48,901 bases of DNA from Polyangiales bacterium (GCA_038231275.1 JBBRLQ010000046.1:1-48901); one strand, 5' to 3'. Positions 11,058-35,954 are shown, counted from the first letter of the stretch. The notes: generated from the sequence alone by a model not told the origin. Translations and numbers: made by a program.

Positions 11058-13733
11058 TCAGCTGATCGAGCGATACAGGCTCGCCACCGCTTCGTCGATC
11101 TTGTCGACGTCCGCGCCGCCGGCCTGCGCCATGTCCGGGCGTCCGCCGCCCGAGCCACCGACGTGGGCGGCGACGGTCTTGATCAGATCGCCCGCCTTGT
11201 AGCGGTCGGTGAGCGACTTGCTGACCGTCAGGACGAGCGACGCCTTCGGTCCGTTGACGGTCCCGACGAGGACCACCGCGTCGCCGAGCTTGTCGCGCAG
11301 CTTCTCCGCGAGCTCGCGCTGCGTCGCGGCGTCCATCGCGTCGACCTTGATGGCGAGCGCCTTGCCGCCAGGAATGTCGCGCGCGGCCTTGAGCATGTCG
11401 TCGATGCCGCCGCCGCCGGAGCCGCCCATCGCGAGCTTGCGCTTGAGATCGGCGACTTCCCTTTCGAGCGCGCGATCGTGCTCGAGGAGCTTCTCGATCC
11501 GCTCGGCGAGGTCGTGGGTGCCACTTTTCGCCGCCTTCGCGGCGGACTTGAGCCCACCTTCGAGCTGCCGCACGTACGCGAGCGCGTTGAGGCCGGTCGC
11601 CGCCTCCATGCGCCGCACGCCCGCCGCGACGCCGCCCTCGCTGACGATCTTGAAGAGTCCGATCTCGCCGAGCGCGCGCGCGTGGGTTCCGCCGCAGAGC
11701 TCCACCGAGTCGCGCGTCATCGTGAGGACGCGCACGACGTCGCCGTACTTCTCTTCGAAGATGGCCATCGCGCCGGACTTCTTTGCCTCTTCGATCGGCA
11801 GAACCTGCGTCTCGACTGGCGCGTCGGTGAGGATCTTCGCGTTGACGAGATCTTCGATCTTCGCGATCTCTTCGGCCGTCACGGCCTTGCCATAGGAAAA
11901 ATCGAAGCGCAGGCGATCGGGCGCGACGAGCGAGCCCTTCTGCTGCGCGGACTCGCCGAGCACGAGGCGGAGCGCCCAATGGAGGAGGTGGGTGGCCGTG
12001 TGGTTGCGTCGCGTGGCCGTGCGGCGCGCGTGGTCGACCGTGAGGCGGACCTTGTCGCCGACCTTGAGCTCGCCCCACGCGATCTTTCCGAGGTGGACGG
12101 TGAGGCCTATGACCGGCTTCTGCGTGTCGAGGACCTGGACCTTCGCGCCGTCCGAAGTGATGGTCCCGCGATCCCCGACCTGACCGCCTGCCTCGCCGTA
12201 GAACGGCGTGACGTCGGTGACGACGCCGACCTCTTCGCCCTCGCGCGCGGATTCGACGAGCGCGGCGCCGCGGGTGATGGCGACGATCGTGCCCTCCCCT
12301 TCTTCGCGCTCGTAGCCCGAGAAGCGCACGGCGGTCCCTTTTGCGAGCGCCTTGCGCCACACGTCCTCGACGGCTTCTTCGCCGACCTTCGAGCCTTCGC
12401 TGCGCGCGCGCTGCTCTTCGAGCGCCTTGTCGTACCCCGACGTGTCGACGCCGAGATCGCGCTCTTTTGCGATGACCTCGGTGAGATCGAGCGGGAAGCC
12501 GTACGTGTCGTAGAGCTTGAACGCCATCTCGCCGCCGATGACCGTGCGGTTGGACGAGCGCATCGCCGCGACCTCCTCGTCGAGGATCTTGAGGCCGCGA
12601 TCGATCGTCTGACGGAAGCGCACCTCTTCTTGCTCGGTGACGCTGAGGATCAGCTCTTTGCGCTGCACGAGCTCCGGGTAGTGCTCGCCCATGAGCGCGA
12701 CGACCTCGCCGGCGACCTCATGGAAGAACGGGCGGCCGATGCCGAGGCGATGGCCGTGGCGGATGGCGCGGCGCATGACGCGGCGGAGCACGTACGGACG
12801 GCCGGCGCGATCGGGGAAGACGCCTTCGGCGATGAGGAACGCCGTGGTGCGCGCGTGATCGGCGATGACGCGCATCGAGACGTCGTCGTCCCCGCCCGAG
12901 CCGAAATATTTCTTCTTCGAGATGTCCGCCGCCTTGTCGACGAGCGCGCGCAGGAGGTCGGTGTCGTAGTTGCTGGTGACGCCCTGGAGCACGGCGGCGA
13001 CGCGCTCCAGGCCGGCGCCGGTGTCGACGCACGGCTTGGGGAGCGGCTCGAGCTTGGCCTCGCCGTCCACGACGCTGCGCTCGAACTGCATGAAGACGTT
13101 GTTCCAGATCTCCATCCAGCCCTTGCCATCGGACCCGGGCTCTTCGTTGAAGGTGGAGAGATCGCAGCCGTCGCCGTGGTACCAGTGGATTTCGGTGCAC
13201 GGTCCGCAGGGGCCGATGTCGCCCATCTGCCAGAAGTTGTCCTTCATTCCCATCGAGATGATCTTCTCGTCGGGGTAGCCGGTGACCTTCTTCCAGATCG
13301 CGCGCGCCTCGTCGTCCGCCGGGAGGCCGGCCTCGCCGCCGAAGACGGTGACGCACATTTTTTCCGCGGGGAGGCCGTACGTCTTGGTGAGGAGCTCCCA
13401 CGCGTACGCGATCGCTTCTTCTTTGAAGTAGTCGCCGAACGAAAAGTTCCCGAGCATCTCGAAGAAGGTGTGGTGGCGCGCGGTGACGCCGACGTTCTCC
13501 AAGTCGTTGTGCTTGCCGCTGATGCGGATGCACTTCTGGCTCGAGGTCGCGCGCGTATAGGGGCGCACGTCCTTGCCGGTGAACACGTCCTTGAACTGGA
13601 CCATGCCGGCGTTTGTGAACATCAGCGTCGGATCGTTCTGGGGAACGATCGGCGAGCTTGGGACCACTTCGTGGCCCTTCTGCTTGAAGAAATCGAGGAA
13701 CGCCGCGCGGACGTCCGAGGCGGTCTTGGTCAT
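11058..13733 (-). CDS. alaS: alanine--tRNA ligase
   Basis: DPTLMFTNAGMVQFK, HHTFFEMLGNFSFGDYFK, DTGAGLER, NHTATHLL, ELCGGTH, GGSGGGRPDMAQAGG. Confidence 0.99.
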   Translation of the reverse strand: MTKTASDVRAAFLDFFKQKGHEVVPSSPIVPQNDPTLMFTNAGMVQFKDVFTGKDVRPYTRATSSQKCIRISGKHNDLENVGVTARHHTFFEMLGNFSFGDYFKEEAIAYAWELLTKTYGLPAEKMCVTVFGGEAGLPADDEARAIWKKVTGYPDEKIISMGMKDNFWQMGDIGPCGPCTEIHWYHGDGCDLSTFNEEPGSDGKGWMEIWNNVFMQFERSVVDGEAKLEPLPKPCVDTGAGLERVAAVLQGVTSNYDTDLLRALVDKAADISKKKYFGSGGDDDVSMRVIADHARTTAFLIAEGVFPDRAGRPYVLRRVMRRAIRHGHRLGIGRPFFHEVAGEVVALMGEHYPELVQRKELILSVTEQEEVRFRQTIDRGLKILDEEVAAMRSSNRTVIGGEMAFKLYDTYGFPLDLTEVIAKERDLGVDTSGYDKALEEQRARSEGSKVGEEAVEDVWRKALAKGTAVRFSGYEREEGEGTIVAITRGAALVESAREGEEVGVVTDVTPFYGEAGGQVGDRGTITSDGAKVQVLDTQKPVIGLTVHLGKIAWGELKVGDKVRLTVDHARRTATRRNHTATHLLHWALRLVLGESAQQKGSLVAPDRLRFDFSYGKAVTAEEIAKIEDLVNAKILTDAPVETQVLPIEEAKKSGAMAIFEEKYGDVVRVLTMTRDSVELCGGTHARALGEIGLFKIVSEGGVAAGVRRMEAATGLNALAYVRQLEGGLKSAAKAAKSGTHDLAERIEKLLEHDRALEREVADLKRKLAMGGSGGGGIDDMLKAARDIPGGKALAIKVDAMDAATQRELAEKLRDKLGDAVVLVGTVNGPKASLVLTVSKSLTDRYKAGDLIKTVAAHVGGSGGGRPDMAQAGGADVDKIDEAVASLYRSIS

Positions 13734-26802: not shown

Positions 26803-27444
26803 TCAGCCGGTCGTGCAGATCTTCGTCGGGCCGACCATTCCGGATTTGCATTTGACGCCCGACGGGCAGTCGCCGTCGGCGCCGCACGTGCGGTGGCAGC
26901 CGACGTTGCTCTTCACGAAGCCGGAGGGACACTGCCCGTTGACCGGCTGCGTGAAGATCGTGTTGCCGCCGGGGTTCGGGGGAGGGGCGCCGCCGCTGCT
27001 GCTACTCGTGGCGCCGCCGCTGCTGCTCGTCGCGTGACCGCCTCCTCCGCCACCACCGCCACCGATGACCGGGACGGGCGCGTTGGTGAAGGCGTTCTCG
27101 GCGATCCATCCCATCTTGCGCGCGCCGCTCGACGGATCGTCGAACGTGACGAGGAACGAGTCGCTCGTCTGCGCGATCTGGGTAACCGTCGTCCCTTGCG
27201 GAACGGTCGTGATCGGCGGGCCGTCGGGCGGAGACTTGCGCGCCACACCGTCTTTGAGGAGCGTCCCAGGCACGTCCTTCAGCTTCTTTTCGTACGGGTA
27301 GCGCGTGATTTCGCTCGTGTTGACGGGCGCACCCTTCGTCGCCGACGCGTCGGGCGCTTTGCCCGCGCTACCCATGCTCTCCGGGCAGCCCCCGAGGATC
27401 GCGAGCGCAAACGCAGAGAACGCCGAGGCGACGAGGATGCGCAT
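26803..27444 (-). CDS. SH3-like lipoprotein with Cys-rich tail (paralog 3)
   Basis: LGGC lipobox. ITRYPYE..RKSPPDG..FLVTFDDP..MGWI..AF core, Gly/Ser linker, 6-Cys tail. Confidence 0.85.
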   Translation of the reverse strand: MRILVASAFSAFALAILGGCPESMGSAGKAPDASATKGAPVNTSEITRYPYEKKLKDVPGTLLKDGVARKSPPDGPPITTVPQGTTVTQIAQTSDSFLVTFDDPSSGARKMGWIAENAFTNAPVPVIGGGGGGGGGHATSSSGGATSSSSGGAPPPNPGGNTIFTQPVNGQCPSGFVKSNVGCHRTCGADGDCPSGVKCKSGMVGPTKICTTG

Positions 27445-27460
27445 GTCGAATTCTCCTCGC

Positions 27461-28216
27461 CTAGCGGCAAAGGCCCTTCGTGCAGCGCTTGTTCCCGCAC
27501 TCGGGGCCGCGCGTGCACTTCATGTGGCACATCTTGTCGTCGAGGAGCGAGTAGTTGCCCGGGCACGCGCCGCCGGTCGGGGAGATGACCGGACCGGAGC
27601 CGCCGCCACCGCCGCCGCCGCCTCCACCACCGCCGCCACCGCCGTCGGAGCCGCCTCCGCCGCCGCCGCCGCCTCCACCACCGCCGCCACCTCCGCCACC
27701 ACCGCCGCCGCCTCCGCCGGCATCGGTCGAGTCGCTTCCGCCACCGCCGCCACCACCGCCGCCGCCGCCGGCGTCTTTCTTCGGGGGAGGCGTCCAGTGA
27801 CCGCCGCCCGTCGGAGCGGCAACCGCCGCAGTGAACGCGTCGTCGGTGATCCAGCCCATCATGCGCTTGCTGGTGCTCGGATCGTCGAACGTGATGAGGA
27901 AGGAGTTCGAGGTCTGGGAGATTTTGATGACGTTCGCGCCCGCGGGGAGCGTGGAGACGGTCGCGCCGTCGGGAGGCGACTTGTGGACGACGACGCCGTC
28001 GCGCACGGTCGTGGCGGCCTCGTTGTCGATTTTCTTTTCGTACGGGTAACGCGTGATGTCGTCGCTGTTGGTCGGGGGCGCGTTGGCCGACGCCGAAGCG
28101 CCGCCCTCACCGCCGCCGTCGGCCGCGTCGGTCTTCTTTTTCGGGCAGCCGGTCACCGCGAGGGCGACGGCGAGAACCAGAAGAGCATTCCACCTAGAGG
28201 AGCTTCGCATCGTCAT
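27461..28216 (-). CDS. SH3-like lipoprotein with poly-Gly linker and Cys-rich tail (paralog 2)
   Basis: VTGC lipobox, same core motif. GGAGAGG upstream of ATG 28216. Confidence 0.85.
   Translation of the reverse strand: MTMRSSSRWNALLVLAVALAVTGCPKKKTDAADGGGEGGASASANAPPTNSDDITRYPYEKKIDNEAATTVRDGVVVHKSPPDGATVSTLPAGANVIKISQTSNSFLITFDDPSTSKRMMGWITDDAFTAAVAAPTGGGHWTPPPKKDAGGGGGGGGGGGSDSTDAGGGGGGGGGGGGGGGGGGGGGGGSDGGGGGGGGGGGGGGGSGPVISPTGGACPGNYSLLDDKMCHMKCTRGPECGNKRCTKGLCR
27597..27772 (-). repeat. GGC/GGT/GGA trinucleotide tract encoding three poly-Gly runs
   Basis: Plus strand (CCG/CCA/CCT)n, translating to long Gly runs in paralog 2. Boundaries approximate. Confidence 0.9.
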
Positions 28217-28246
28217 CCGCCTCTCCAATCGAGCGTCTCGCGTCGT

Positions 28247-29146
28247 TCAACGCATCTTGCAGTAGCCGCCGCGCGTGCAGAACACGCCGGGGCCGAACAC
28301 AGCGCAGTCACCATCTTTGCCGGGCGTGCAGGTGTGATGGCACTTGCCGTCGGGCTGACCCATCTTGAACCCGGCCGGGCATGTGCCGCCCGCGCCGGGC
28401 TCGACGACCATCGGGCCGGGGTTCCCGCCGCCGCCGCCACCTGCGTCCGCCGTCGCACCACCGCCGCCCGCATCGGTCGTGGCGGGAGGTGCCGCCGCGT
28501 CCGTCGTGGTCGGCGTCGGGGTGGGAGCTCCGGAGTCGGTGGTGGCCGGGCGCACGATGGCCGAGCAATTTTTCACCGTCGCGCCGGCGCCGCCGTCATG
28601 CGTGGCGATCTGCGCAGTTCCGGTGCACGCCTGGCCGCTCGGGCAGTCGCCGTCGGCTTTGCAGACCTTGCCGCAGAAGATCTCGTCGCCGACGAGCTGC
28701 GTCTGCCCCGCCGGGCACGGGCCCTTGGGAACGACGATTCCGGGCGGGTTGAACGCGTCCTTGATGACCCACCCCATGAGGCGCTCGCTGGCGTTCTTGG
28801 GGTTGTCGAACGTGACGAGCGCGTATTTGTCGTGGCCGGCAATCTGGACGACGTTCGTTCCCTTGGGCAGCGTCGCGACGATCTCGCCCGAGGGCGGAGA
28901 CTTGCGGATGTTGTTCGCCGACCACTGCACGGTCGCGGCCTGGTGATCGATGACGGTCTCGTCGGGAAAATGGGCCACCGTCTGCGCGTTCACCGCCTCG
29001 GGCCCCGCCACCGTCGCGTCGGCGGCGCCTGCTTCGGCGTCGGAGGAAGCGTCCGCACCGGCCCCTGGCTTCTTCGGACACCCTGCGAGCACGCAGAGCA
29101 TCGCGAACAGGCACGGAACCGACAGCCACCGCCGCATCGATCGCAT
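28247..29146 (-). CDS. SH3-like lipoprotein with two Cys-rich modules (paralog 1)
   Basis: LAGC lipobox. VAHFPDE..IRKSPPSG..LVTFDNP..LMGWV..AF core, two Cys clusters. Confidence 0.85.
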   Translation of the reverse strand: MRSMRRWLSVPCLFAMLCVLAGCPKKPGAGADASSDAEAGAADATVAGPEAVNAQTVAHFPDETVIDHQAATVQWSANNIRKSPPSGEIVATLPKGTNVVQIAGHDKYALVTFDNPKNASERLMGWVIKDAFNPPGIVVPKGPCPAGQTQLVGDEIFCGKVCKADGDCPSGQACTGTAQIATHDGGAGATVKNCSAIVRPATTDSGAPTPTPTTTDAAAPPATTDAGGGGATADAGGGGGGNPGPMVVEPGAGGTCPAGFKMGQPDGKCHHTCTPGKDGDCAVFGPGVFCTRGGYCKMR

Positions 29147-29251
29147 CGTGGGGGCCACGGTCACACGCTCCGCGAACGAGATCAAGCGCTAGGGACAAGA
29201 CGCCCCGACAAGACGCGTCACTCCCCTGCCGTGCACGCGAGAGGCGTCGAA

Positions 29252-30637
29252 TCAGCGCGCCGCGTAAATTCCCTTGTCGGTGGCGAACCAGACCGAGCCG
29301 TCGCCGCCGATCGCTGGGGGGGTGACGATCGCCTCGGCGGGCGTCGTGAACGATTGGCGGATGTTGCCGTCGCGGTCGACGAGACGAAGCTCGCGGCCGA
29401 TGGTGAGGGCGACTTCTCCGCCGTCGAACGCCGTGACGAGCGTGCGCGCGGTGGGCGCTTGCGACCACTGCACCTTGCCGTCTTGAATCGCGGCGAAGCC
29501 GGTCCCCGCCAAGTAGATGCGCCCGCCGCCTCCTTCTACCGGAGGCTGGAGCACCTCGAACGGCACGGTGATTTGCGCCGTGTCGGTGCCTTGGAGCGAC
29601 ACGAGGTGAAGCTTCGTCTTCCACCGCGCGGTCATCTCGCCGAAGCGGAGGAAGAGATCGAGATCCGGCTGGTAGGGGCCGCGCCAGTGCAGATCGTCCA
29701 CCGCCGGAACGCCCTCGGCCTCCAGCAGCGCGATCGTGCTGTCGATGATCGAGACGTCGTAGGGCGCGAACCCGACCTTTGCAGTATGCAACTTCTTGAG
29801 GAACGACTGCGCGTCGGCCTCGGGCGCGTAGACGCGGAGCTCTCCGGACGTCGAGAGCGCGACGATCTCGCTGTTGCGCGTGATGGCGCCGAGACCCCAC
29901 GCGTCCTTCATGACGTCGCCGCCGAGGAGCTTCTTCGCCGGCGAGCCGGGGACGAGGTGGTTGGCGACGAGCTCGAGCTGCTGCGGGGTCCTGTCGCCGT
30001 GGTTGCCCTCCATCGCCTCTTGGTTGACGACGAAGATGGAGTCGGCGGTGACGTGCGTGGCCCACACGCGGCCCGCGCGGCCCAGCGGGACGAAGACGCT
30101 GAGCGCGGCCCGCGTGCCTGTAAAATCGTACTCGTCGAGCGCGTGGAACACGCCGGTGCGCGTCGCGAAGGTGAGCCCGGCCGACGTGCTGCGCGGAACG
30201 CTGCCGACGTGCTTGCCGGACAGATCGAAGATCCACGCCGCGTCGGCCCCGCGAAGGACCAGGTGCCGATCGTCCGGCGCGACCAGCAAGTGCTCGATCC
30301 GCCCGAGAGGCCGAGCGGCGAGCGGCCCCGTGAGCGCGTCGAACGCCACGATGCGCGCGAGCGGCCCGAGCGTGCGACGCGCCACGTGCGTGCGCGAGGC
30401 TCGCGTCCCATCGACCCACGGGGTCACGTAGGCATTGCCGCTGGTCGTCGTGGTCGTCATGGCGTCGGCCTTTGGAGGGGGAGAAGCAGAGGCAGATGGA
30501 GCAAGGCGTGGTGGTTGCGGGGTCTGCGAGGGCGCACCGTCGGAGGGAGTGTCGGGTCCCGCGGTGCCGATCGAGCGCGGCCCCGGCTTGCACGCCGCCA
30601 AGGACAGCGCGAGCACGGCGACGCGCGCGCCGTTCAC
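29252..30637 (-). CDS. lipoprotein with PQQ-like beta-propeller features
   Basis: GTG 30637 (GTGA overlap) gives MNGARVAVLALSLAAC lipobox. C-terminal IVTPPAIGGDGSVWFAT..IYA and DGKVQW are PQQ-repeat-like. Confidence 0.75.
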   Translation of the reverse strand: MNGARVAVLALSLAACKPGPRSIGTAGPDTPSDGAPSQTPQPPRLAPSASASPPPKADAMTTTTTSGNAYVTPWVDGTRASRTHVARRTLGPLARIVAFDALTGPLAARPLGRIEHLLVAPDDRHLVLRGADAAWIFDLSGKHVGSVPRSTSAGLTFATRTGVFHALDEYDFTGTRAALSVFVPLGRAGRVWATHVTADSIFVVNQEAMEGNHGDRTPQQLELVANHLVPGSPAKKLLGGDVMKDAWGLGAITRNSEIVALSTSGELRVYAPEADAQSFLKKLHTAKVGFAPYDVSIIDSTIALLEAEGVPAVDDLHWRGPYQPDLDLFLRFGEMTARWKTKLHLVSLQGTDTAQITVPFEVLQPPVEGGGGRIYLAGTGFAAIQDGKVQWSQAPTARTLVTAFDGGEVALTIGRELRLVDRDGNIRQSFTTPAEAIVTPPAIGGDGSVWFATDKGIYAAR

Positions 30638-33600
30638 GTGTCGCTCACCTTTCGCGTCGGAGCCGGAGCGTCCTTCAGCCACGCGTGGAAGTTGTTCGCC
30701 AAGAACTGAAGGTCCTTCTTCTCGAGCGTCGTGCGAAGTGTCTTCACGTGCGTCGTGGCGTGCTCGGTGAAGGTCGGCTGACCGAGCGCGTACAAGAGGA
30801 GCGACTCGTCGAGCTCGGTCTTGAGGAGCGGAAGCTCGAGCGGCGGCGTCGGCAAGAGCAGCGGGTGCGTCCCTGGACGCGACGCGACGACGTTGACGAA
30901 GATGTGATGCCCGGTCGGCACTGCCGCAGGCGGCGTCGCCCCGGTGAACGTGTTCTCGAGCTCGAAGAGCGGAAAGAAGCACACGAAGATGCGCCGAACG
31001 TGCGGTTTGTCGTGCGACCTTCCGGCGGGCGACCCGGGCGGGTCCATCTCGATGACGAACTGCTTCGTGAAGATGTTCGCGTCTTGGCAGAGCGTCTGGA
31101 TCGACTTGAAGACGACCGCCTGCCCCATCGCGTTATTGTCGGCCGCCGTGAGGCGCACCATGAACTTGATGCGAATCATCAAGAGGCCGTCGTAGATCTT
31201 CGCGGCCGGCGTGGCGGAGCCGATGTCGGCCACGGCCTTCTTGTACATCCGCTCGACCACCGCCTCGTCCTTGCCCATGCTGTAGAGGGATGCCTCGCAG
31301 CGGTTCGAGGCGTGCACCGCGAAGCCGGGGAAGATGGCCTTGTACGGATCGGGGTTGCCAGGAATCAGCTCGCAGAACGGGCGCTCGTAGACCATCTTGC
31401 CGCCGGTCGCGGGCGCGAGATTCAGCGGGAAATAAGGCTTCGCGTCGACCATCTTCGCGAAGTCGGCGCGCTCGGTGACGGCGCTCGCGTAGCCCCAGTA
31501 GTGGCGGAGGCGCGGCTTGTTGTTGCTGTTCATCACCGACGGCCCGTCGGTCCCGAACGGGCGCGTCGCGGCGCTGTCGACCGCGTACTGGTTCCACGAC
31601 GCGTAGGAGCGACCGATCGTCGGATGGCCTTCGATGTAGTCGTCGGGCCACCCGAGGACGTGGCCCATCTCGTGAGCGAGCGTGAAGCGGTTGGTGCCTG
31701 CGTCCTGCCCCGTCTCGGCGTCGTCGGGCGGCGCCCACACTGGGCCGATGTCCCCTTTGAACATCGTGACGGTGTGCGTGCTGCAATTCGCCCCCGCGCG
31801 CGCCAACGGATCGGCCGACTTCGTGTAAAGGATCCGCATCGCGTTGGTGAAGGTCTTCGGGACCTCGGCGAAGAAGTGCCGGACGCGCACGACGCGTGCG
31901 TTCGCGGCGACCGCGCCATCGGGGGCCAGCACCAGCTCCGCCGGCTTGCGATTGGCAGGCGGCTGGTTGGGGTGCGCCGGGTGCGTCTGATCCCAGCGCT
32001 CGGCGGCGGCGTTCAGGAATGGAAACGCGTTCTCGCCGTCGGCGCCGATCTGGTTGTCGAAGAAGATCGGCACCCACGACAAGAGGTGGACGAGCTTCAC
32101 GTCGGTCCCGCCGACCTGGTGCTTCACGTCGTCGGAGACGTCGATGAGGTGCTGAAGCGACCGGCCCTTCGGCTGCCCGAGAAAATCCGGCATCGTCGGG
32201 TTGCCCGTGAGCAAATCGACCATGCGGTGTTGGTCGTCGAAGTCGTTGGCGAGCGCGGCGAGCGCGCCGACGCCGTCGGTCTTTCCGAACGCCGCGCCGG
32301 CCGACGCCTGGATGCGCTTCTCGCGCAGCGAATAGACGATCCCTTCGTGGAACACGATGCGCGTGACGCGATCGACGCCCTCGCCGCCCAGGATGACGGC
32401 GTCCTCCGCGGGGAGGTAGTTGCGCGGGAGCTTCGTCTTCCAGTAGTGCGGCTTCTTGGGATCGGGCTCGCGGATGTGGAGCAGGTGATCGAGGAGCGTG
32501 ACGCGCGCGTCCTTCTTCAGCTTGATGGGGTCGAAGGTGCCGGCGGCGAGGAGCGCGTCGTCGAGGTGGAACTGGAGCGGCTCCTTCTTCGTCGTCGCCT
32601 CGGTGCGCATCGCCGAGAACTCTTTTCGCTGCGGGAAGCCGTGGCCGTCCTCCTTGGTCCACGCCTGCATGCCCTTGGAGTGCCACTCACGGGGCAGGAG
32701 GTACCGCTCCTCGCGTTTGACGCTCGGCTCGGTCGATCTGATCGTGACCTTGTCCTTCGCCGCCGCCTTCGAGAGATCGATGGTGGCGTGCGACGTCGAG
32801 CCTGCGGTCCCCGTGAGGAAGACGTAGTCGAACGTCGACTTGGCGAGATTCGCCTTCGTGCGCTCGTGGAGGAGGTACACGGTGCCGTCGTCGTCGAGCG
32901 CGGTGCCACCGGCGGTGCGGCTGTCCGATCCGGTCGCGGGACCACTGAGCGCCCGCGTGCCCATCGCCTGCACGACCAGACCCGGCGGCACGGGCTTTCG
33001 CTGCTTCGCCTTGAGATCGTAATACGAGTAGCGGACGTACGAGCGGAAGAGACCCTGATCGACCTGCACGAGCCACGGCTTGCTCGGCTCGCCGTACGCG
33101 CGGAGCTCGAGATCGTCATAGACGAGGACGCCGGAGGTGCCGAATTTCGTCTTCTTCGGCGACTCCTTGAAGCCACCTTGCTTCACCTTCATGAAGCTCG
33201 CCCACAAAGGCAGGCGCAGGAGCTTGCGCTTCTCGACGAGCGCCACGTCCTTGAAATTCACCCACTCCATCTTCTCGAGATCGAGCCACGCGTCGCCGCG
33301 CGCGACGTCTGCCGTGGGCACGAATGCGCCCTTTCCGTCGGGAGCGAGCGGCCGCCACGCGAGCGCCCACGTGCTTCCGGCGACCTCCTCTTTCCCGTCG
33401 AGGGTGAAGTTGATCCACGAGACGCCGTCGGTCTGGCTCGGCTCGCCGAGGACCGGCGGCACGCTGCGATCGGAGACGCAGAAGATGTAGAACTGGTGGA
33501 TGGGGAGCGGCTGATCGCTGTCCTTGATGGGGTGGAAGAATTGCCCCTTCAGGATGAAGCGCGCGCGGCCGAGCGGGACGACGTACGCGCCCGCGGCGGC

Positions 33601-33651
33601 ACCGCCAGACGCGCCGGTCGGCATGAACGTGTTCGGGAGCGGATCGGTCAC
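30634..33651 (-). CDS. large protein with zinc metallopeptidase (HExxH) domain
   Basis: TLAHEMGHVLGWPDDY (HExxHxxGxxD) and a downstream SVM Met-turn-like motif. No signal peptide. Confidence 0.75.
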   Translation of the reverse strand: MTDPLPNTFMPTGASGGAAAGAYVVPLGRARFILKGQFFHPIKDSDQPLPIHQFYIFCVSDRSVPPVLGEPSQTDGVSWINFTLDGKEEVAGSTWALAWRPLAPDGKGAFVPTADVARGDAWLDLEKMEWVNFKDVALVEKRKLLRLPLWASFMKVKQGGFKESPKKTKFGTSGVLVYDDLELRAYGEPSKPWLVQVDQGLFRSYVRYSYYDLKAKQRKPVPPGLVVQAMGTRALSGPATGSDSRTAGGTALDDDGTVYLLHERTKANLAKSTFDYVFLTGTAGSTSHATIDLSKAAAKDKVTIRSTEPSVKREERYLLPREWHSKGMQAWTKEDGHGFPQRKEFSAMRTEATTKKEPLQFHLDDALLAAGTFDPIKLKKDARVTLLDHLLHIREPDPKKPHYWKTKLPRNYLPAEDAVILGGEGVDRVTRIVFHEGIVYSLREKRIQASAGAAFGKTDGVGALAALANDFDDQHRMVDLLTGNPTMPDFLGQPKGRSLQHLIDVSDDVKHQVGGTDVKLVHLLSWVPIFFDNQIGADGENAFPFLNAAAERWDQTHPAHPNQPPANRKPAELVLAPDGAVAANARVVRVRHFFAEVPKTFTNAMRILYTKSADPLARAGANCSTHTVTMFKGDIGPVWAPPDDAETGQDAGTNRFTLAHEMGHVLGWPDDYIEGHPTIGRSYASWNQYAVDSAATRPFGTDGPSVMNSNNKPRLRHYWGYASAVTERADFAKMVDAKPYFPLNLAPATGGKMVYERPFCELIPGNPDPYKAIFPGFAVHASNRCEASLYSMGKDEAVVERMYKKAVADIGSATPAAKIYDGLLMIRIKFMVRLTAADNNAMGQAVVFKSIQTLCQDANIFTKQFVIEMDPPGSPAGRSHDKPHVRRIFVCFFPLFELENTFTGATPPAAVPTGHHIFVNVVASRPGTHPLLLPTPPLELPLLKTELDESLLLYALGQPTFTEHATTHVKTLRTTLEKKDLQFLANNFHAWLKDAPAPTRKVSDT

Positions 33652-35603
33652 GGCGCGCCTCCGTCCGCGTCAGTCGGCTCCGGCGCGCCGACGTCTTCGG
33701 CGGGGGCATCCTTGTTGTCGATCCAATATTCGTTGAGCGTCCCCGAGTCGCCCATCTCCGCGTGCTCGGCGGCCTTCACCCGCTCTTGGAGCTCTGGCAG
33801 CTTCGCGAACTCGAACAATTCGTACGGGTCGCCATCGTCGTTGCAGACGACCTTGTACGCGTGCGTGAGCGGCAGGTGCTCGAAGAAAATCTCCACGCGC
33901 TCCTTGTCGTTTGCGCGGCCGTCGCTGGCGAGCTTCTTTTCCCGCTTGATCGTGCCGTCGTCGCTCTCGAGGACGTACGTGTGCGGGAGATCGTCGGCCT
34001 CCTTCAGCTTGATGGGGAAGCGCAAAATGAGATCGTGGCTCAGGTCCGCGCCGCCCTGGCACGGGCATTTTTTGGCGACGGTCTTGTAGGCCGAGCAGCG
34101 GTACGGCGGGTTGTCGGGATCGGACACCGTCGGGAGCGGGCCGGACTTCGACTTGCACGGCCCGAGGCTGCGCAGCTTGCACGGAAGCGCCTTCGGTCCC
34201 GCGGCGCCGTCGAACACGAACACGACGGCGCGGCGGCTCTCGCGATCCTTTACGCTGATGCTGAGCGGATTGAACTCGCCGCAGCCCATGAAGGGCGCGT
34301 CGCCGATCTTCTCGAATTTGCCCTTGGGGATGGGCTTCCTCGTGACGCGCTTGGCGTACGCGAGGAAGAGCTCTTTGCGGCCCGCCTTGCCGAGGAAGTC
34401 CGCCGGAGGGAGCGGCGCTTGCTCGGCGGGCTTGTCCGGGTAGTCGCCGGCCTGGAAGCGGCGGATGGCCTGCTTGGTGGCCGCGTCGCGCACGCCGTTC
34501 TCGGGCACCGCGTGGCCGGCGTCGTCGGTGACGCCGAGCGCGTTCATCATGTGCTGCGCCTCTTCGAGGTCCCACTTCTCTTTCCAATTCGGGCCGTCGG
34601 CGGTGCCGGAGTAGAGTTCCTCCCACGCGTCGGCGTCGTGCGTGAAGAGCGCGAAGACGGCCTTGGCGCGGCGCTCGGAAAGCTCCTTGTTCAGCGCGTC
34701 GGGGCCCGCGAGATCGGTGTGGCCGAAGACCATGCCCTTGCGACCGTCGTCGGCCGACAAATCCTCGGCGATCCCTGCAAGCGTCTCGGTCGCGTCGCGC
34801 TTCACGAAGCTTCGACCGAAGGAGAAATGCGCGCCCGGAATCTCGTGGCACTTGAAGTACGGCGTGATGACGAGCGTGCGGGGGACCGTGCACTCGAGGG
34901 ACACCGGCTGCGTCACGCCGTCGCCGATTTCGCGGACGATGGACGTGGGATCCGTGATTTTCTTCGGATCGCGCGGCTCCTTCCAGCGCGGGCGGAGCTT
35001 CTCGCGCGCGGCGTCGAGGCTGACGACCGCGGCAGACGCGAAGCCGGCGGCGACCCCGTCGATGCGCGCGATGCCTGCGCCGTTCGTGGTGACGACGCGC
35101 TTCGCGCCGAGGACAATGTACGCGATGTCGAGGCCGTCGATCGCGTCGCCGACCTCGTCGACGACCTCGAGCGAGAACCACGTCGTGTCGATCGCCGTCG
35201 GCGGGGGCGCGCGGAGCGGTGGCGGCGTCGCGACGCTCGGGGCGTGAACCGGCGCGGGCATCGCGAGGCCCGAGTCCAGCTCTTCGACGCGCAGGCGTCC
35301 GTCGCGCGTCGCGTCGACGAGGGCGTGCTCGATCTCGCGCCAGTGCGGCCCCGTAGCCGGTACGTCGAGATCGGCGACCTGTCCCGAGAGCGCTCCGTAC
35401 ATCGCGACGATAGCGCGCCCCAGCTCGTCGCCGCCGGAGTGCGACGCCGCGAAGAAGACGAGCGAGCGGATCGCCAGCGGGCCTCCCTGCGCGGCGCGCG
35501 CGGGCTGCGGCGTGCGCGACTCGTCGGAGGTCGGCAGCCACACGCGCCAGGACCGCCCGAAGTTGTCCCGGAACGCCCACTCCCTCTGGCCGCGCAGTCC
35601 CAC
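33648..35603 (-). CDS. OmpA-C-like protein with inserted peptidoglycan-binding domain and beta-sandwich modules
   Basis: GHTDLAG..NKELSERRAKAV ... GCGEFNP..SRRAVVFVF, split by AQHMMNALG..NGVRDAATKQAIRRFQ. Upstream WFSLEVVDEVG..TTNGAGIAR module. Start uncertain. Confidence 0.8.
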   Translation of the reverse strand: MGLRGQREWAFRDNFGRSWRVWLPTSDESRTPQPARAAQGGPLAIRSLVFFAASHSGGDELGRAIVAMYGALSGQVADLDVPATGPHWREIEHALVDATRDGRLRVEELDSGLAMPAPVHAPSVATPPPLRAPPPTAIDTTWFSLEVVDEVGDAIDGLDIAYIVLGAKRVVTTNGAGIARIDGVAAGFASAAVVSLDAAREKLRPRWKEPRDPKKITDPTSIVREIGDGVTQPVSLECTVPRTLVITPYFKCHEIPGAHFSFGRSFVKRDATETLAGIAEDLSADDGRKGMVFGHTDLAGPDALNKELSERRAKAVFALFTHDADAWEELYSGTADGPNWKEKWDLEEAQHMMNALGVTDDAGHAVPENGVRDAATKQAIRRFQAGDYPDKPAEQAPLPPADFLGKAGRKELFLAYAKRVTRKPIPKGKFEKIGDAPFMGCGEFNPLSISVKDRESRRAVVFVFDGAAGPKALPCKLRSLGPCKSKSGPLPTVSDPDNPPYRCSAYKTVAKKCPCQGGADLSHDLILRFPIKLKEADDLPHTYVLESDDGTIKREKKLASDGRANDKERVEIFFEHLPLTHAYKVVCNDDGDPYELFEFAKLPELQERVKAAEHAEMGDSGTLNEYWIDNKDAPAEDVGAPEPTDADGGAP

Positions 35604-35606
35604 GCG

Positions 35607-35895
35607 TGCAGGCTAAATCACCGAACCTGATTCTCGTTCGAGAATCAGGCTCGGCGCTTTAGATCCAACCCAAGTGGGGCGACACCCCCTCGTCGCGGTC
35701 GCGACGAGCCTCCCCATCATCGCCTTCGGCGACTCGTGCTTTGCACGAGAAATCACGCTCAATCTCTCCCCGTGCGTCCGCACGGGCTGCCGAAGGCACG
35801 TGGGGTGGTTCCGACGCGCAGCGGCGGAGGGGCGAAGCCCCACAAGACGGAAACTAAATGAGGGAGCATCATCAGCTCCCTCATTTAGCCATGCA
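35607..35895. repeat. multi-hairpin palindromic intergenic element (MITE/REPIN-like or structured RNA)
   Basis: Terminal IR TGCAGGCTAAAT / ATTTAGCCATGCA. Perfect 11-bp (35626-35649) and 14-bp (35854-35888) hairpins flank an ~170-bp imperfect inverted duplication. Confidence 0.8.
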
Positions 35896-35954
35896 CACCC
35901 GTCGCGCATAGGTCCCCAAATGGATGACACGGCGTGGCGCGCGCCGATCGCGCG

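Follow-up and report, generated by a model that had tools for sequence, protein, structure and literature searches.

The window analysed here, a stretch of 48,901 nucleotides from a Polyangiales bacterium, is an entire 48.9-kb contig (C46) of a 9.28-Mb genome (G000; 164 contigs, 69% G+C). On its minus strand lie three chained genes, g1, g2 and g3, which encode a peptidoglycan-binding protein, a protein with a zincin-type zinc site and a lipoprotein (Table 1). It seems probable, from these genes and from their relatives in other genomes, that the trio is an orphan cargo cassette of a type VI secretion system (T6SS), made up of a peptidoglycan-binding carrier, a zinc protease toxin and an immunity lipoprotein. 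An earlier note, made from the sequence alone, had proposed a cassette of adaptor or co-effector, toxin and immunity protein delivered in trans, and the comparative evidence of T6SS linkage, PAAR fusions and gene swapping supports that proposal.

The three genes and their products

The two GTGA overlaps that were said to chain the genes can be read directly in the sequence, and the high third-position G+C of all three (0.90 for g1 and 0.91 for g2) is that of genuine genes in a contig with 69% G+C. The nearest homologs of these two proteins carry the names Polyangiaceae, Byssovorax, Sorangium and Nannocystaceae, and a word-indexed search returned 91 homologs of g1, 19 of g2 and 6 of g3. The trio has the traits of an effector cassette, with no Sec or Tat signal on g1 or g2 and a lipoprotein gene directly downstream. 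The claim that g1 and g2 have no signal peptide holds: inspection of hydropathy found no hydrophobic segment preceded by positive charge at either N-terminus, and the maximum Kyte-Doolittle values over 19-residue windows (1.51 for g1 and 1.21 for g2) leave no window resembling a transmembrane (TM) segment. Nor could a signal peptide come from an alternative start, as only 3 codons in g1 and 6 in g2 separate the start from the preceding stop. The aligned g1 and g2 families show no Sec, Tat or TM signal either.

The first protein was described as a split-OmpA protein with peptidoglycan-binding modules, and both its Pfam match and its predicted fold bear this out. Residues 260-321 match Pfam OmpA (PF00691; profile positions 2-65 of 98) with 29.2 bits against a cut-off of 27.2, and the match is present in all 75 of the g1 homologs compared. 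In an AlphaFold2 (AF2) model built on these 75 homologs (pLDDT 88.8, pTM 0.74), residues 243-467 superpose on whole OmpA-like domains such as 3td3 (Z 12.5, root-mean-square deviation (rmsd) 3.1, 117 of 120 residues). The domain also resembles that of TagL (5m38; Z 12.2, rmsd 2.0, 109 residues aligned), a fold that many non-T6SS proteins match equally well. Because this whole OmpA fold is interrupted by an insert at residues 330-417, the label split OmpA is correct. The insert is helical and resembles the N-terminal peptidoglycan-binding domain of SleB (Z 8.8). Its match to PG_binding_1 (PF01471; residues 345-385) reaches 16.4 bits, below the gathering cut-off of 23, and 25 of the 75 homologs match that family at E<=1e-3; the insert is PG_binding_1-like and not a PG_binding_1 member.

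The motif GHTDLAGPDALNKELSERRAKAV (GHTD..G....N.ELSERRA) of g1 is conserved, and D297 and R312, which we take to be the conserved Asp/Arg pair that binds the peptide stem of peptidoglycan, are invariant in the aligned homologs. Upstream of the OmpA-like domain, the AF2 model shows a disordered linker after residues 1-110 and a beta-sandwich whose best fold matches are 6fwv_B (Z 10.3) and 8bdw (Z 9.3); CarboxypepD_reg and Big_1 Pfam matches were found in 4 and 5 of the 75 homologs, respectively. Downstream of it, the Cys-rich linker has one invariant cysteine (C475) and three that are at least 90% conserved (C483, C503 and C513). Foldseek with g1 found nothing beyond OmpA and CnaB.

The 1005-residue product of g2 does carry a zincin site, as had been claimed. 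Its sequence, HEMGHVLGWPDDY, is of the HExxHxxGxPDxY type common to snapalysin (M7) and immune inhibitor A (InhA; M6), and all 19 aligned homologs keep H660, E661, H664, P669, D670 and Y672. The AF2 model (pLDDT 83, pTM 0.77) suggests a metzincin-like catalytic domain at residues 490-728, with Z-scores for MMP-9 (6.1), mirolysin (5.9), ulilysin (5.9), astacin (5.8) and snapalysin (5.3) that lie below the level counted as clear. The snapalysin structure aligns with residues 522-724 (Z 5.3, rmsd 3.4, 114 residues), and in alignments with a profile of the g2 family AHETGHVLGLPDHY of snapalysin (1c7k) is matched with E 0.0036 and the corresponding segment of InhA (4yu5) with E 0.12. A candidate for the Met-turn is M707, with conservation of at least 90%. 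With 12.8 bits against a cut-off of 300 for the snapalysin model, g2, as judged from its sequence, resembles M6/M7 enzymes in its zinc site but falls outside the curated families. Snapalysin and InhA are Sec-secreted extracellular proteases, whereas g2 has no signal peptide and, unlike them, has its catalytic domain flanked by about 490 residues of beta-sandwich domains on the N-terminal side and by about 280 residues on the C-terminal side.

Wider structural searches with g2 gave little. Foldseek with the whole model returned only tandem beta-sandwich matches to pilins and adhesins (TM-score ~0.1), which are uninformative, and the best ESM Atlas score, 0.80, is under the level that counts, so that its M10 and M6 clusters are mere leads. 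The effector-domain structure of VgrG2b was not among the 50 matches listed in a wide structural search, which excludes nothing.

That g3 is a lipoprotein was confirmed by its N-terminus, VNGARVAVLALSLAAC, which has a signal peptide and the lipobox LSLAAC; of the 10 homologs aligned, at least 90% retain the lipobox Cys. The public gene call (P0111, 29252-30457) begins at an internal ATG, is 402 residues long and misses both the signal peptide and the lipobox. A longer form (576 residues, start at 30982) was rejected, as the extra stretch overlaps the g2 frame and the homologs begin at the lipobox signal. While g3 itself has no Pfam match, PQQ_2 is matched by its homolog at locus L026 (E 1.6e-5, below cut-off) and by the products of the downstream genes at L032 (E 8e-8) and L036 (E 1e-6), and the C-terminus of g3 looks beta-propeller-like. 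A second g3-like lipoprotein (464 residues) is encoded in G000 on contig C34 (L049, 10412-11806); a vgrG lies at the end of this contig, some 5 kb away. The lipoprotein shares 42% identity with g3 over its last 120 residues, and with no g1 or g2 adjacent its gene looks like an orphan immunity gene.

Table 1. Positions of the cassette genes, their domains and nearby features in the window.
Feature	Position	Strand	Description
g1	33648..35603	-	Open reading frame, 651 aa; peptidoglycan-binding protein without signal peptide; proposed secreted carrier/co-effector
g2	30634..33651	-	Open reading frame, 1005 aa; zincin without signal peptide; proposed toxin
g3	29252..30637	-	461-aa lipoprotein from a GTG overlapping the g2 stop; proposed periplasmic immunity protein
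g1 stop/g2 start GTGA overlap	33648..33651	-	GGAGG (Shine-Dalgarno-like) upstream
g2 stop/g3 start GTGA overlap	30634..30637	-	AGGTGA (Shine-Dalgarno-like) upstream
g1 residues 1-110	35274..35603	-	Hypervariable N-terminal domain; AF2: beta-hairpin and three helices
g1 residues 139-249	34857..35189	-	CnaB/transthyretin-like beta-sandwich; VIA-align Z 8-10
g1 residues 250-467	34203..34856	-	OmpA-like domain
Insert in OmpA-like domain, g1 residues 330-417	34353-34616		Helical, PG_binding_1-like
g1 residues 468-601	33801..34202	-	Cys-rich linker and C-terminal beta-sandwich (525-601); alignment and AF2
g2 residues 28-201	33049..33570	-	Transthyretin-like beta-sandwich; VIA-align Z ~6 (3uaf, 2igl), modest
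g2 residues 490-728	31468..32184	-	Metzincin-like catalytic domain; zinc motif and modest fold match
g2 zinc site	31636-31674		HExxHxxGxPDxY type
g3 signal peptide and lipobox	30590-30637		Lipobox LSLAAC
g3 residues 343-461	29255-29611	-	Conserved C-terminal PQQ/BamB-like region; PQQ_2 matches in homologs
Intergenic region 5' of cassette	35604..35954	-	~350 nt, holds two perfect inverted repeats
Inverted repeat 1	35854-35888		14-bp arms, 7-nt loop, T-rich tail; ~65 nt past the stop of the upstream gene
Inverted repeat 2	35626-35649		10-11-bp arms; 23 nt before the g1 start
Downstream lipoprotein genes	26803-29185	-	Three tandem paralogs (312, 255, 213 aa) directly downstream of g3

Relatives of the cassette and their neighbours

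An exhaustive profile search of 1.84 billion sequences found 560 representatives of the g2 family at E<=1e-3 and 159 at E<=1e-30. In a sample of 401 genomes of the order, full-length g2 occurs in 7, with the G298 copy split by a TGA, and the g1 family in at least 24; partial g2 matches lie inside proteins of about 1500 residues in 10 genomes of another family. The gene upstream of g2 is g1-like or peptidoglycan-binding in all 6 of the other genomes that have g2 at full length, and in 5 of them g2 is followed by a g3-like gene, the exception being G041, so this gene arrangement is not chance. For 9 of the 19 g2 homologs the longest contig has the same length as that of a g1 homolog, and a Byssovorax record has g1 and g2 homologs with adjacent locus tags. 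A scan of species-representative genome contigs gave one true locus in 601 pattern matches, on the same contig as G299. At the G315 locus (L027, contig C31, 3-6238) a second OmpA/PG_binding_1 protein (623 residues) lies 5 kb from the trio, and downstream of its gene come three more, for proteins of 377, 305 and 742 residues, that match no family.

The three genes have diverged to very different degrees. Identity to the trio of G236, a genome of the same genus, is 58% for the g1 core, 30% for g2 and 25% for g3, and at most g1-family loci the genes downstream are unrelated, with propeller proteins of the RCC1/PQQ type after them in several cases. The swapping of the second and third genes that the earlier note had proposed to look for in homologous neighbourhoods is thus seen, with g1 conserved and the genes downstream of it diverged or unrelated. 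A gradient in which g3 has diverged most and g1 least is typical of toxin/immunity pairs. In G325 a decayed copy (L068, G325:C368, 7380-10268) has g1 truncated near residue 424, a remnant of 136 residues from the C-terminus of g2, in a different frame (profile E 7.8e-10), and an intact g3 homolog (E 4.9e-138). Because neither g2 nor any of nine close homologs matched this locus in tblastn, the remnant stands on one profile match, and in so fragmented an assembly (760 contigs) it may be an artefact.

The clearest link to a T6SS comes from G236. In this genome a single strand carries vgrG (contig C29, at 30.8 kb), an RHS gene, two small genes, a DUF2169 gene (E 1e-78), a 354-residue gene and then the homologs of g1, g2 and g3, with short gaps or none. 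A homologous pair of DUF2169 and 362-residue genes follows three vgrG genes on contig C25 of G000, and a TPR-repeat protein sits there where G236 has the trio. As this pair precedes the TPR-repeat protein in G000, the trio occupies an effector slot in G236 and is an orphan in G000. The C25 region itself (L050, G000:C25:56000-76000) encodes VgrG proteins of 899, 930 and 921 residues, a lipoprotein, DUF2169, its 362-residue partner and the TPR-repeat protein of at least 1556 residues.

The survey of homologous neighbourhoods proposed in the earlier note gave further links of this kind. T6SS markers are linked to g2 relatives at L025 (DUF2169, RHS and vgrG), L030 (a vgrG fragment), L031, L032 and L036; in G298 a vgrG fragment lies about 800 nt past the g3 homolog, at the contig end. 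The g2 relatives of about 1500 residues keep the trio, with a PG_binding_1 protein upstream of the zincin and a PQQ_2 protein downstream, and a DUF4123 gene adjoins them in 3 of 3 loci scanned, 10 genomes having such matches. VgrG, PAAR, TagH-FHA or DUF2169 genes lie beside 5 of 16 further g1-family loci (L054, L055, L062, L065 and L069), and since only 129 of the 160 open reading frames listed for these 16 loci were scanned, 5 is a floor. At L055 (G041:C142) a gene directly after vgrG and beside the g1-family gene (11957-12823) encodes a 288-residue protein with an N-terminal PAAR domain and a small C-terminal zincin, HEYGHTLGLADDY, with the same type of zinc site as g2. A PAAR domain is also fused to the g1 architecture itself in 2 of 75 homologs (P0061 and P0065), where PAAR and a Gly-rich linker replace the N-terminal domain.

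According to a survey of vgrG loci, DUF2169 and DUF4123 belong to the adaptor families characterised for the T6SS (PMC10673891), and the adaptors found, DUF2169, DUF4123 and TagH, point to a T6SS rather than an extracellular contractile injection system (eCIS). G000 has the parts of a T6SS (Hcp, TssC, nine Phage_base_V matches, three PAAR and DUF2169) on contigs C25, C31, C14, C2, C34, C28 and C48; the cassette is called an orphan because these are other contigs than its own. No DUF4123 match was found in G000, but control genomes were equally silent, which makes this result uninformative. TssC was found in 21 of the 24 genomes with the g1 family (one of them, G388, an unpublished genome) and in 6 of the 7 with full-length g2, against 181 of 401 (45%) in the sample. 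Numbers of VgrG (Phage_GPD) matches vary widely, with 109 in G377 (10.5 Mb), 46 in G298 (8.6 Mb) and 2 to 21 in the other genomes compared.

Fusions in relatives connect g1 to g2. Among 25 long relatives of g2, 11 have an N-terminal OmpA domain and 3 a PG_binding_1 domain, so that 14 of 25 are fusions of the g1-g2 type. In one of these, P0242, residues 112-361 align with g1 247-529, which is the split OmpA and the Cys-rich linker (30% identity, E 6e-25), and residues 638-1301 align with positions 303-965 of the g2 profile. The fusions examined lack two parts, the g1 C-terminal sandwich and the 200-300 residues with which g2 begins, a hint that these may dock non-covalently when the two proteins are separate.

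A proposed T6SS cargo cassette and its alternatives

We propose that g2 is a zinc metalloprotease toxin with a metzincin-like fold and that g1 is a secreted co-effector or carrier that would bind it. g1 may dock on the VgrG/PAAR spike through its hypervariable N-terminal domain, which PAAR replaces in some homologs, and may need a DUF2169-type adaptor encoded elsewhere to do so. Its OmpA-like and PG_binding_1-like modules would hold the protease at the peptidoglycan in the periplasm of the attacked cell; alternatively, they may bridge the toxin to the spike, as has been shown for LysM proteins in vgrG loci. g3, a lipoprotein facing the periplasm, would bind g2 and thus protect the producer and its kin. 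For secretion, toxicity, substrate and the contacts of g1 with g2, of g1 with the spike and of g2 with g3, these are the roles that we infer.

A broader idea, which we find possible but rather doubtful, is that Polyangia-type myxobacteria have in the g1 family a general, hitherto undescribed 'wall-tethering carrier' for the T6SS, that g1 525-601 and g2 1-200 are its docking pair with the toxin, and that g2 cuts the tethers between outer membrane and wall and not peptidoglycan. The core of such a carrier would be the beta-sandwich, the split OmpA with its PG_binding_1-like insert and the Cys-rich linker. Mounted on the spike by an exchangeable N-terminal or PAAR domain, it would bring interchangeable toxins, fused to it or made from downstream genes, to the target's peptidoglycan layer. 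If this were true it would be a new targeting principle for the T6SS; if not, the trio would be one more effector-immunity pair.

By analogy, the nearest functional parallel is the C-terminal metallopeptidase of VgrG2b from the H2-T6SS of P. aeruginosa (Wood et al. 2019). As that paper describes it, the peptidase has an HEXXH site, follows a TTR-like linker and shows toxicity only when it is in the periplasm. Its immunity protein, PA0261, is envelope-targeted, encoded immediately downstream and a lipoprotein in Enterobacteriaceae (PMC6899460). By this description g2 shares the HEXXH zinc peptidase, a transthyretin-like domain before it and a downstream gene for an envelope-targeted, putative immunity protein, and the same periplasmic action and T6SS delivery are proposed for it. 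The comparison is by description and not by sequence, and there are differences: the peptidase there is fused to VgrG, whereas here it is a separate 1005-residue protein with an M6/M7-type HExxHxxGxPDxY site, preceded by the gene of a separate peptidoglycan-binding protein and followed by that of a 461-residue propeller-like lipoprotein.

For g1 the nearest parallel, again by analogy, is found in a set of LysM and PG_binding_1 domains encoded in vgrG loci (Commun Biol 2023). As described in the text of that study, they stand alone upstream of a toxin or at the toxin N-terminus, sometimes beside classic adaptors, and a LysM protein was required for binding between VgrG and effector (PMC10673891). 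The same dual encoding is seen with g1, which is separate here and fused in 14 of the 25 long g2 relatives. The text, supplementary tables aside, reports PG_binding_1 in vgrG loci only from gamma-proteobacterial families and mentions OmpA 0 times (PMC10673891). g1 differs from that set in its split OmpA with PG_binding_1-like insert, its beta-sandwich, its Cys-rich linker, its variable or PAAR N-terminus and its occurrence in Polyangia-type myxobacteria.

The earlier note had expected the products of g2 and g3 to form a complex. We modelled g2 480-1005 with g3 17-461 in three runs, with three controls, using a test whose mark is reached by 116 of 157 solved complexes and by 2 of 215 mismatched pairs. 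The median score was 0.60 (runs 0.60, 0.68 and 0.29) against 0.00 for the best control, and the runs share at least 37% of their contacts, with a partner pLDDT of at least 79. With a score no higher than 0.60, only 18 of the 157 solved complexes reached the mark, as did both of the mismatches that passed. The pair falls in the class 'weak support', which, unless there is a good prior, is wrong more often than it is right.

Several points weigh against a T6SS cargo cassette, the class of the g2-g3 model among them. As the earlier note had seen, the window has no vgrG, PAAR or hcp gene; none was matched on the 48.9-kb contig, and delivery in trans has to be assumed because no T6SS gene lies there. 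No T6SS marker was found in the ~+/-8 kb fetched at 4 of the 6 other g2 loci (L026, L027, L028 and L029) or at 11 of the 16 g1-family loci. G315, a genome 97% complete, has the full trio and no TssC or Phage_GPD match, and two genomes with g1-family matches, G306 and G307, also have no match to either. The co-occurrence with TssC overstates the link, because T6SSs occur commonly in this order and genomes that are related do not count as independent. As for g2, its fold match to metzincins is modest (Z 5.3-6.2), no Pfam family matches it at E<=0.1, and the NCBIfam M6-domain model TIGR03296 matches residues 656-730 with 22.1 bits, far under the cut-off of 110.8.

Some of these points would suit a housekeeping role, which we nevertheless think unlikely. 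The trio would then be an envelope module of the producer, with g1 and g2 as a peptidoglycan-tethered protease that reaches the producer's own periplasm by an unrecognised route, g3 as its regulator or inhibitor, and a function in wall remodelling, sporulation or gliding. Peptidoglycan-binding modules and a lipoprotein partner are what an endogenous wall enzyme might have, most homologous loci have no T6SS genes nearby, G315 has the trio with no detectable T6SS, and the neighbours of the cassette in the window are housekeeping genes, for example radA, ndk and a DapE-like gene. No Sec, Tat or TM signal is present on g1 or g2, however, here or in the aligned families, and PAAR fusions and adjacency to DUF2169, DUF4123 and vgrG would have no role in a housekeeping enzyme. 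The patchy distribution (g2 in 7 and g1 in 24 of 401 genomes), the rapid divergence, with g2 at 30% identity within a genus, and the loss of the toxin with retention of g3 in one lineage all fit a weapon better. Another secretion route is less probable again. The absence of linked T6SS genes in G000 and of TssC and VgrG matches in G315 would be explained if the trio were cargo of another contact-dependent or contractile system, such as an eCIS, outer-membrane exchange or the Tad-like and type III secretion-like predation machinery, and several such systems are named in a review of myxobacterial killing (PMC10433427). The linked markers are all T6SS-specific, though, being DUF2169, DUF4123, TagH with T6SS_FHA_C and VgrG with a Gp5 C-terminal domain; no search was aimed at eCIS genes. 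The toxins that outer-membrane exchange transfers are lipoproteins, in contrast to g1 and g2, which lack a signal.

The resemblance of the g1 OmpA-like domain to the peptidoglycan-binding domain of TagL (5m38, Z 12.2) raises the question of whether g1 is a structural accessory that anchors the producer's T6SS to the cell wall, with g2 and g3 as mere neighbours. Peptidoglycan-binding accessories of this kind are well known, and the passages on TagL and evolved TssL anchors describe membrane-anchored proteins of the firing cell, TagL having three TM helices and a periplasmic C-terminus (PMC13584744). g1 shares their fold but is predicted to be soluble; its sequence contains neither a signal peptide nor a window resembling a TM segment (maximum 1.51), so that it is not a TagL-type anchor by that measure. 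Its translation is also coupled to that of g2, relatives have the two fused, the PAAR fusion puts a g1-type protein on the expelled tip of the spike, and many proteins outside the T6SS match the OmpA fold just as well. We regard such an anchoring role as very improbable.

As a proposed T6SS cargo cassette, the trio offers a compact and testable case of a periplasm-acting metzincin toxin and of a large immunity lipoprotein of the propeller type. Its peptidoglycan-binding co-effector exists in separate, toxin-fused and PAAR-fused forms, and the fusions predict which surfaces interact. It also illustrates how relatives alone can serve to assign an orphan cassette to a secretion system. To our knowledge, myxobacterial T6SS effectors outside Myxococcus have barely been charted. 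Neither the g2 family nor the g1 architecture is described in the papers returned by topical full-text searches; the supplements of two of them (PMC10673891 and PMC11148199) could list relatives.

Surroundings of the cassette in the window

Because of the 350-nt upstream region with its repeats and the GTGA overlaps, the cassette probably has its own control region and internal translational coupling. The distal inverted repeat is likely to be the terminator of the upstream gene, and the one close to g1 could be an operator or attenuator. A consensus scan found no sigma-70-like promoter in the region 5' of g1. Other terminator-like matches from the scan were set aside, as most were on the opposite strand and inside genes.

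The three tandem lipoprotein genes directly downstream of g3 were considered as cassette members and rejected, since none of 13 related loci compared has a counterpart. Their products have Gly-rich linkers and Cys-rich C-termini, one of them with a weak match to a WAP-type four-disulfide domain, and paralogs are encoded on contigs C3, C6 and C32.

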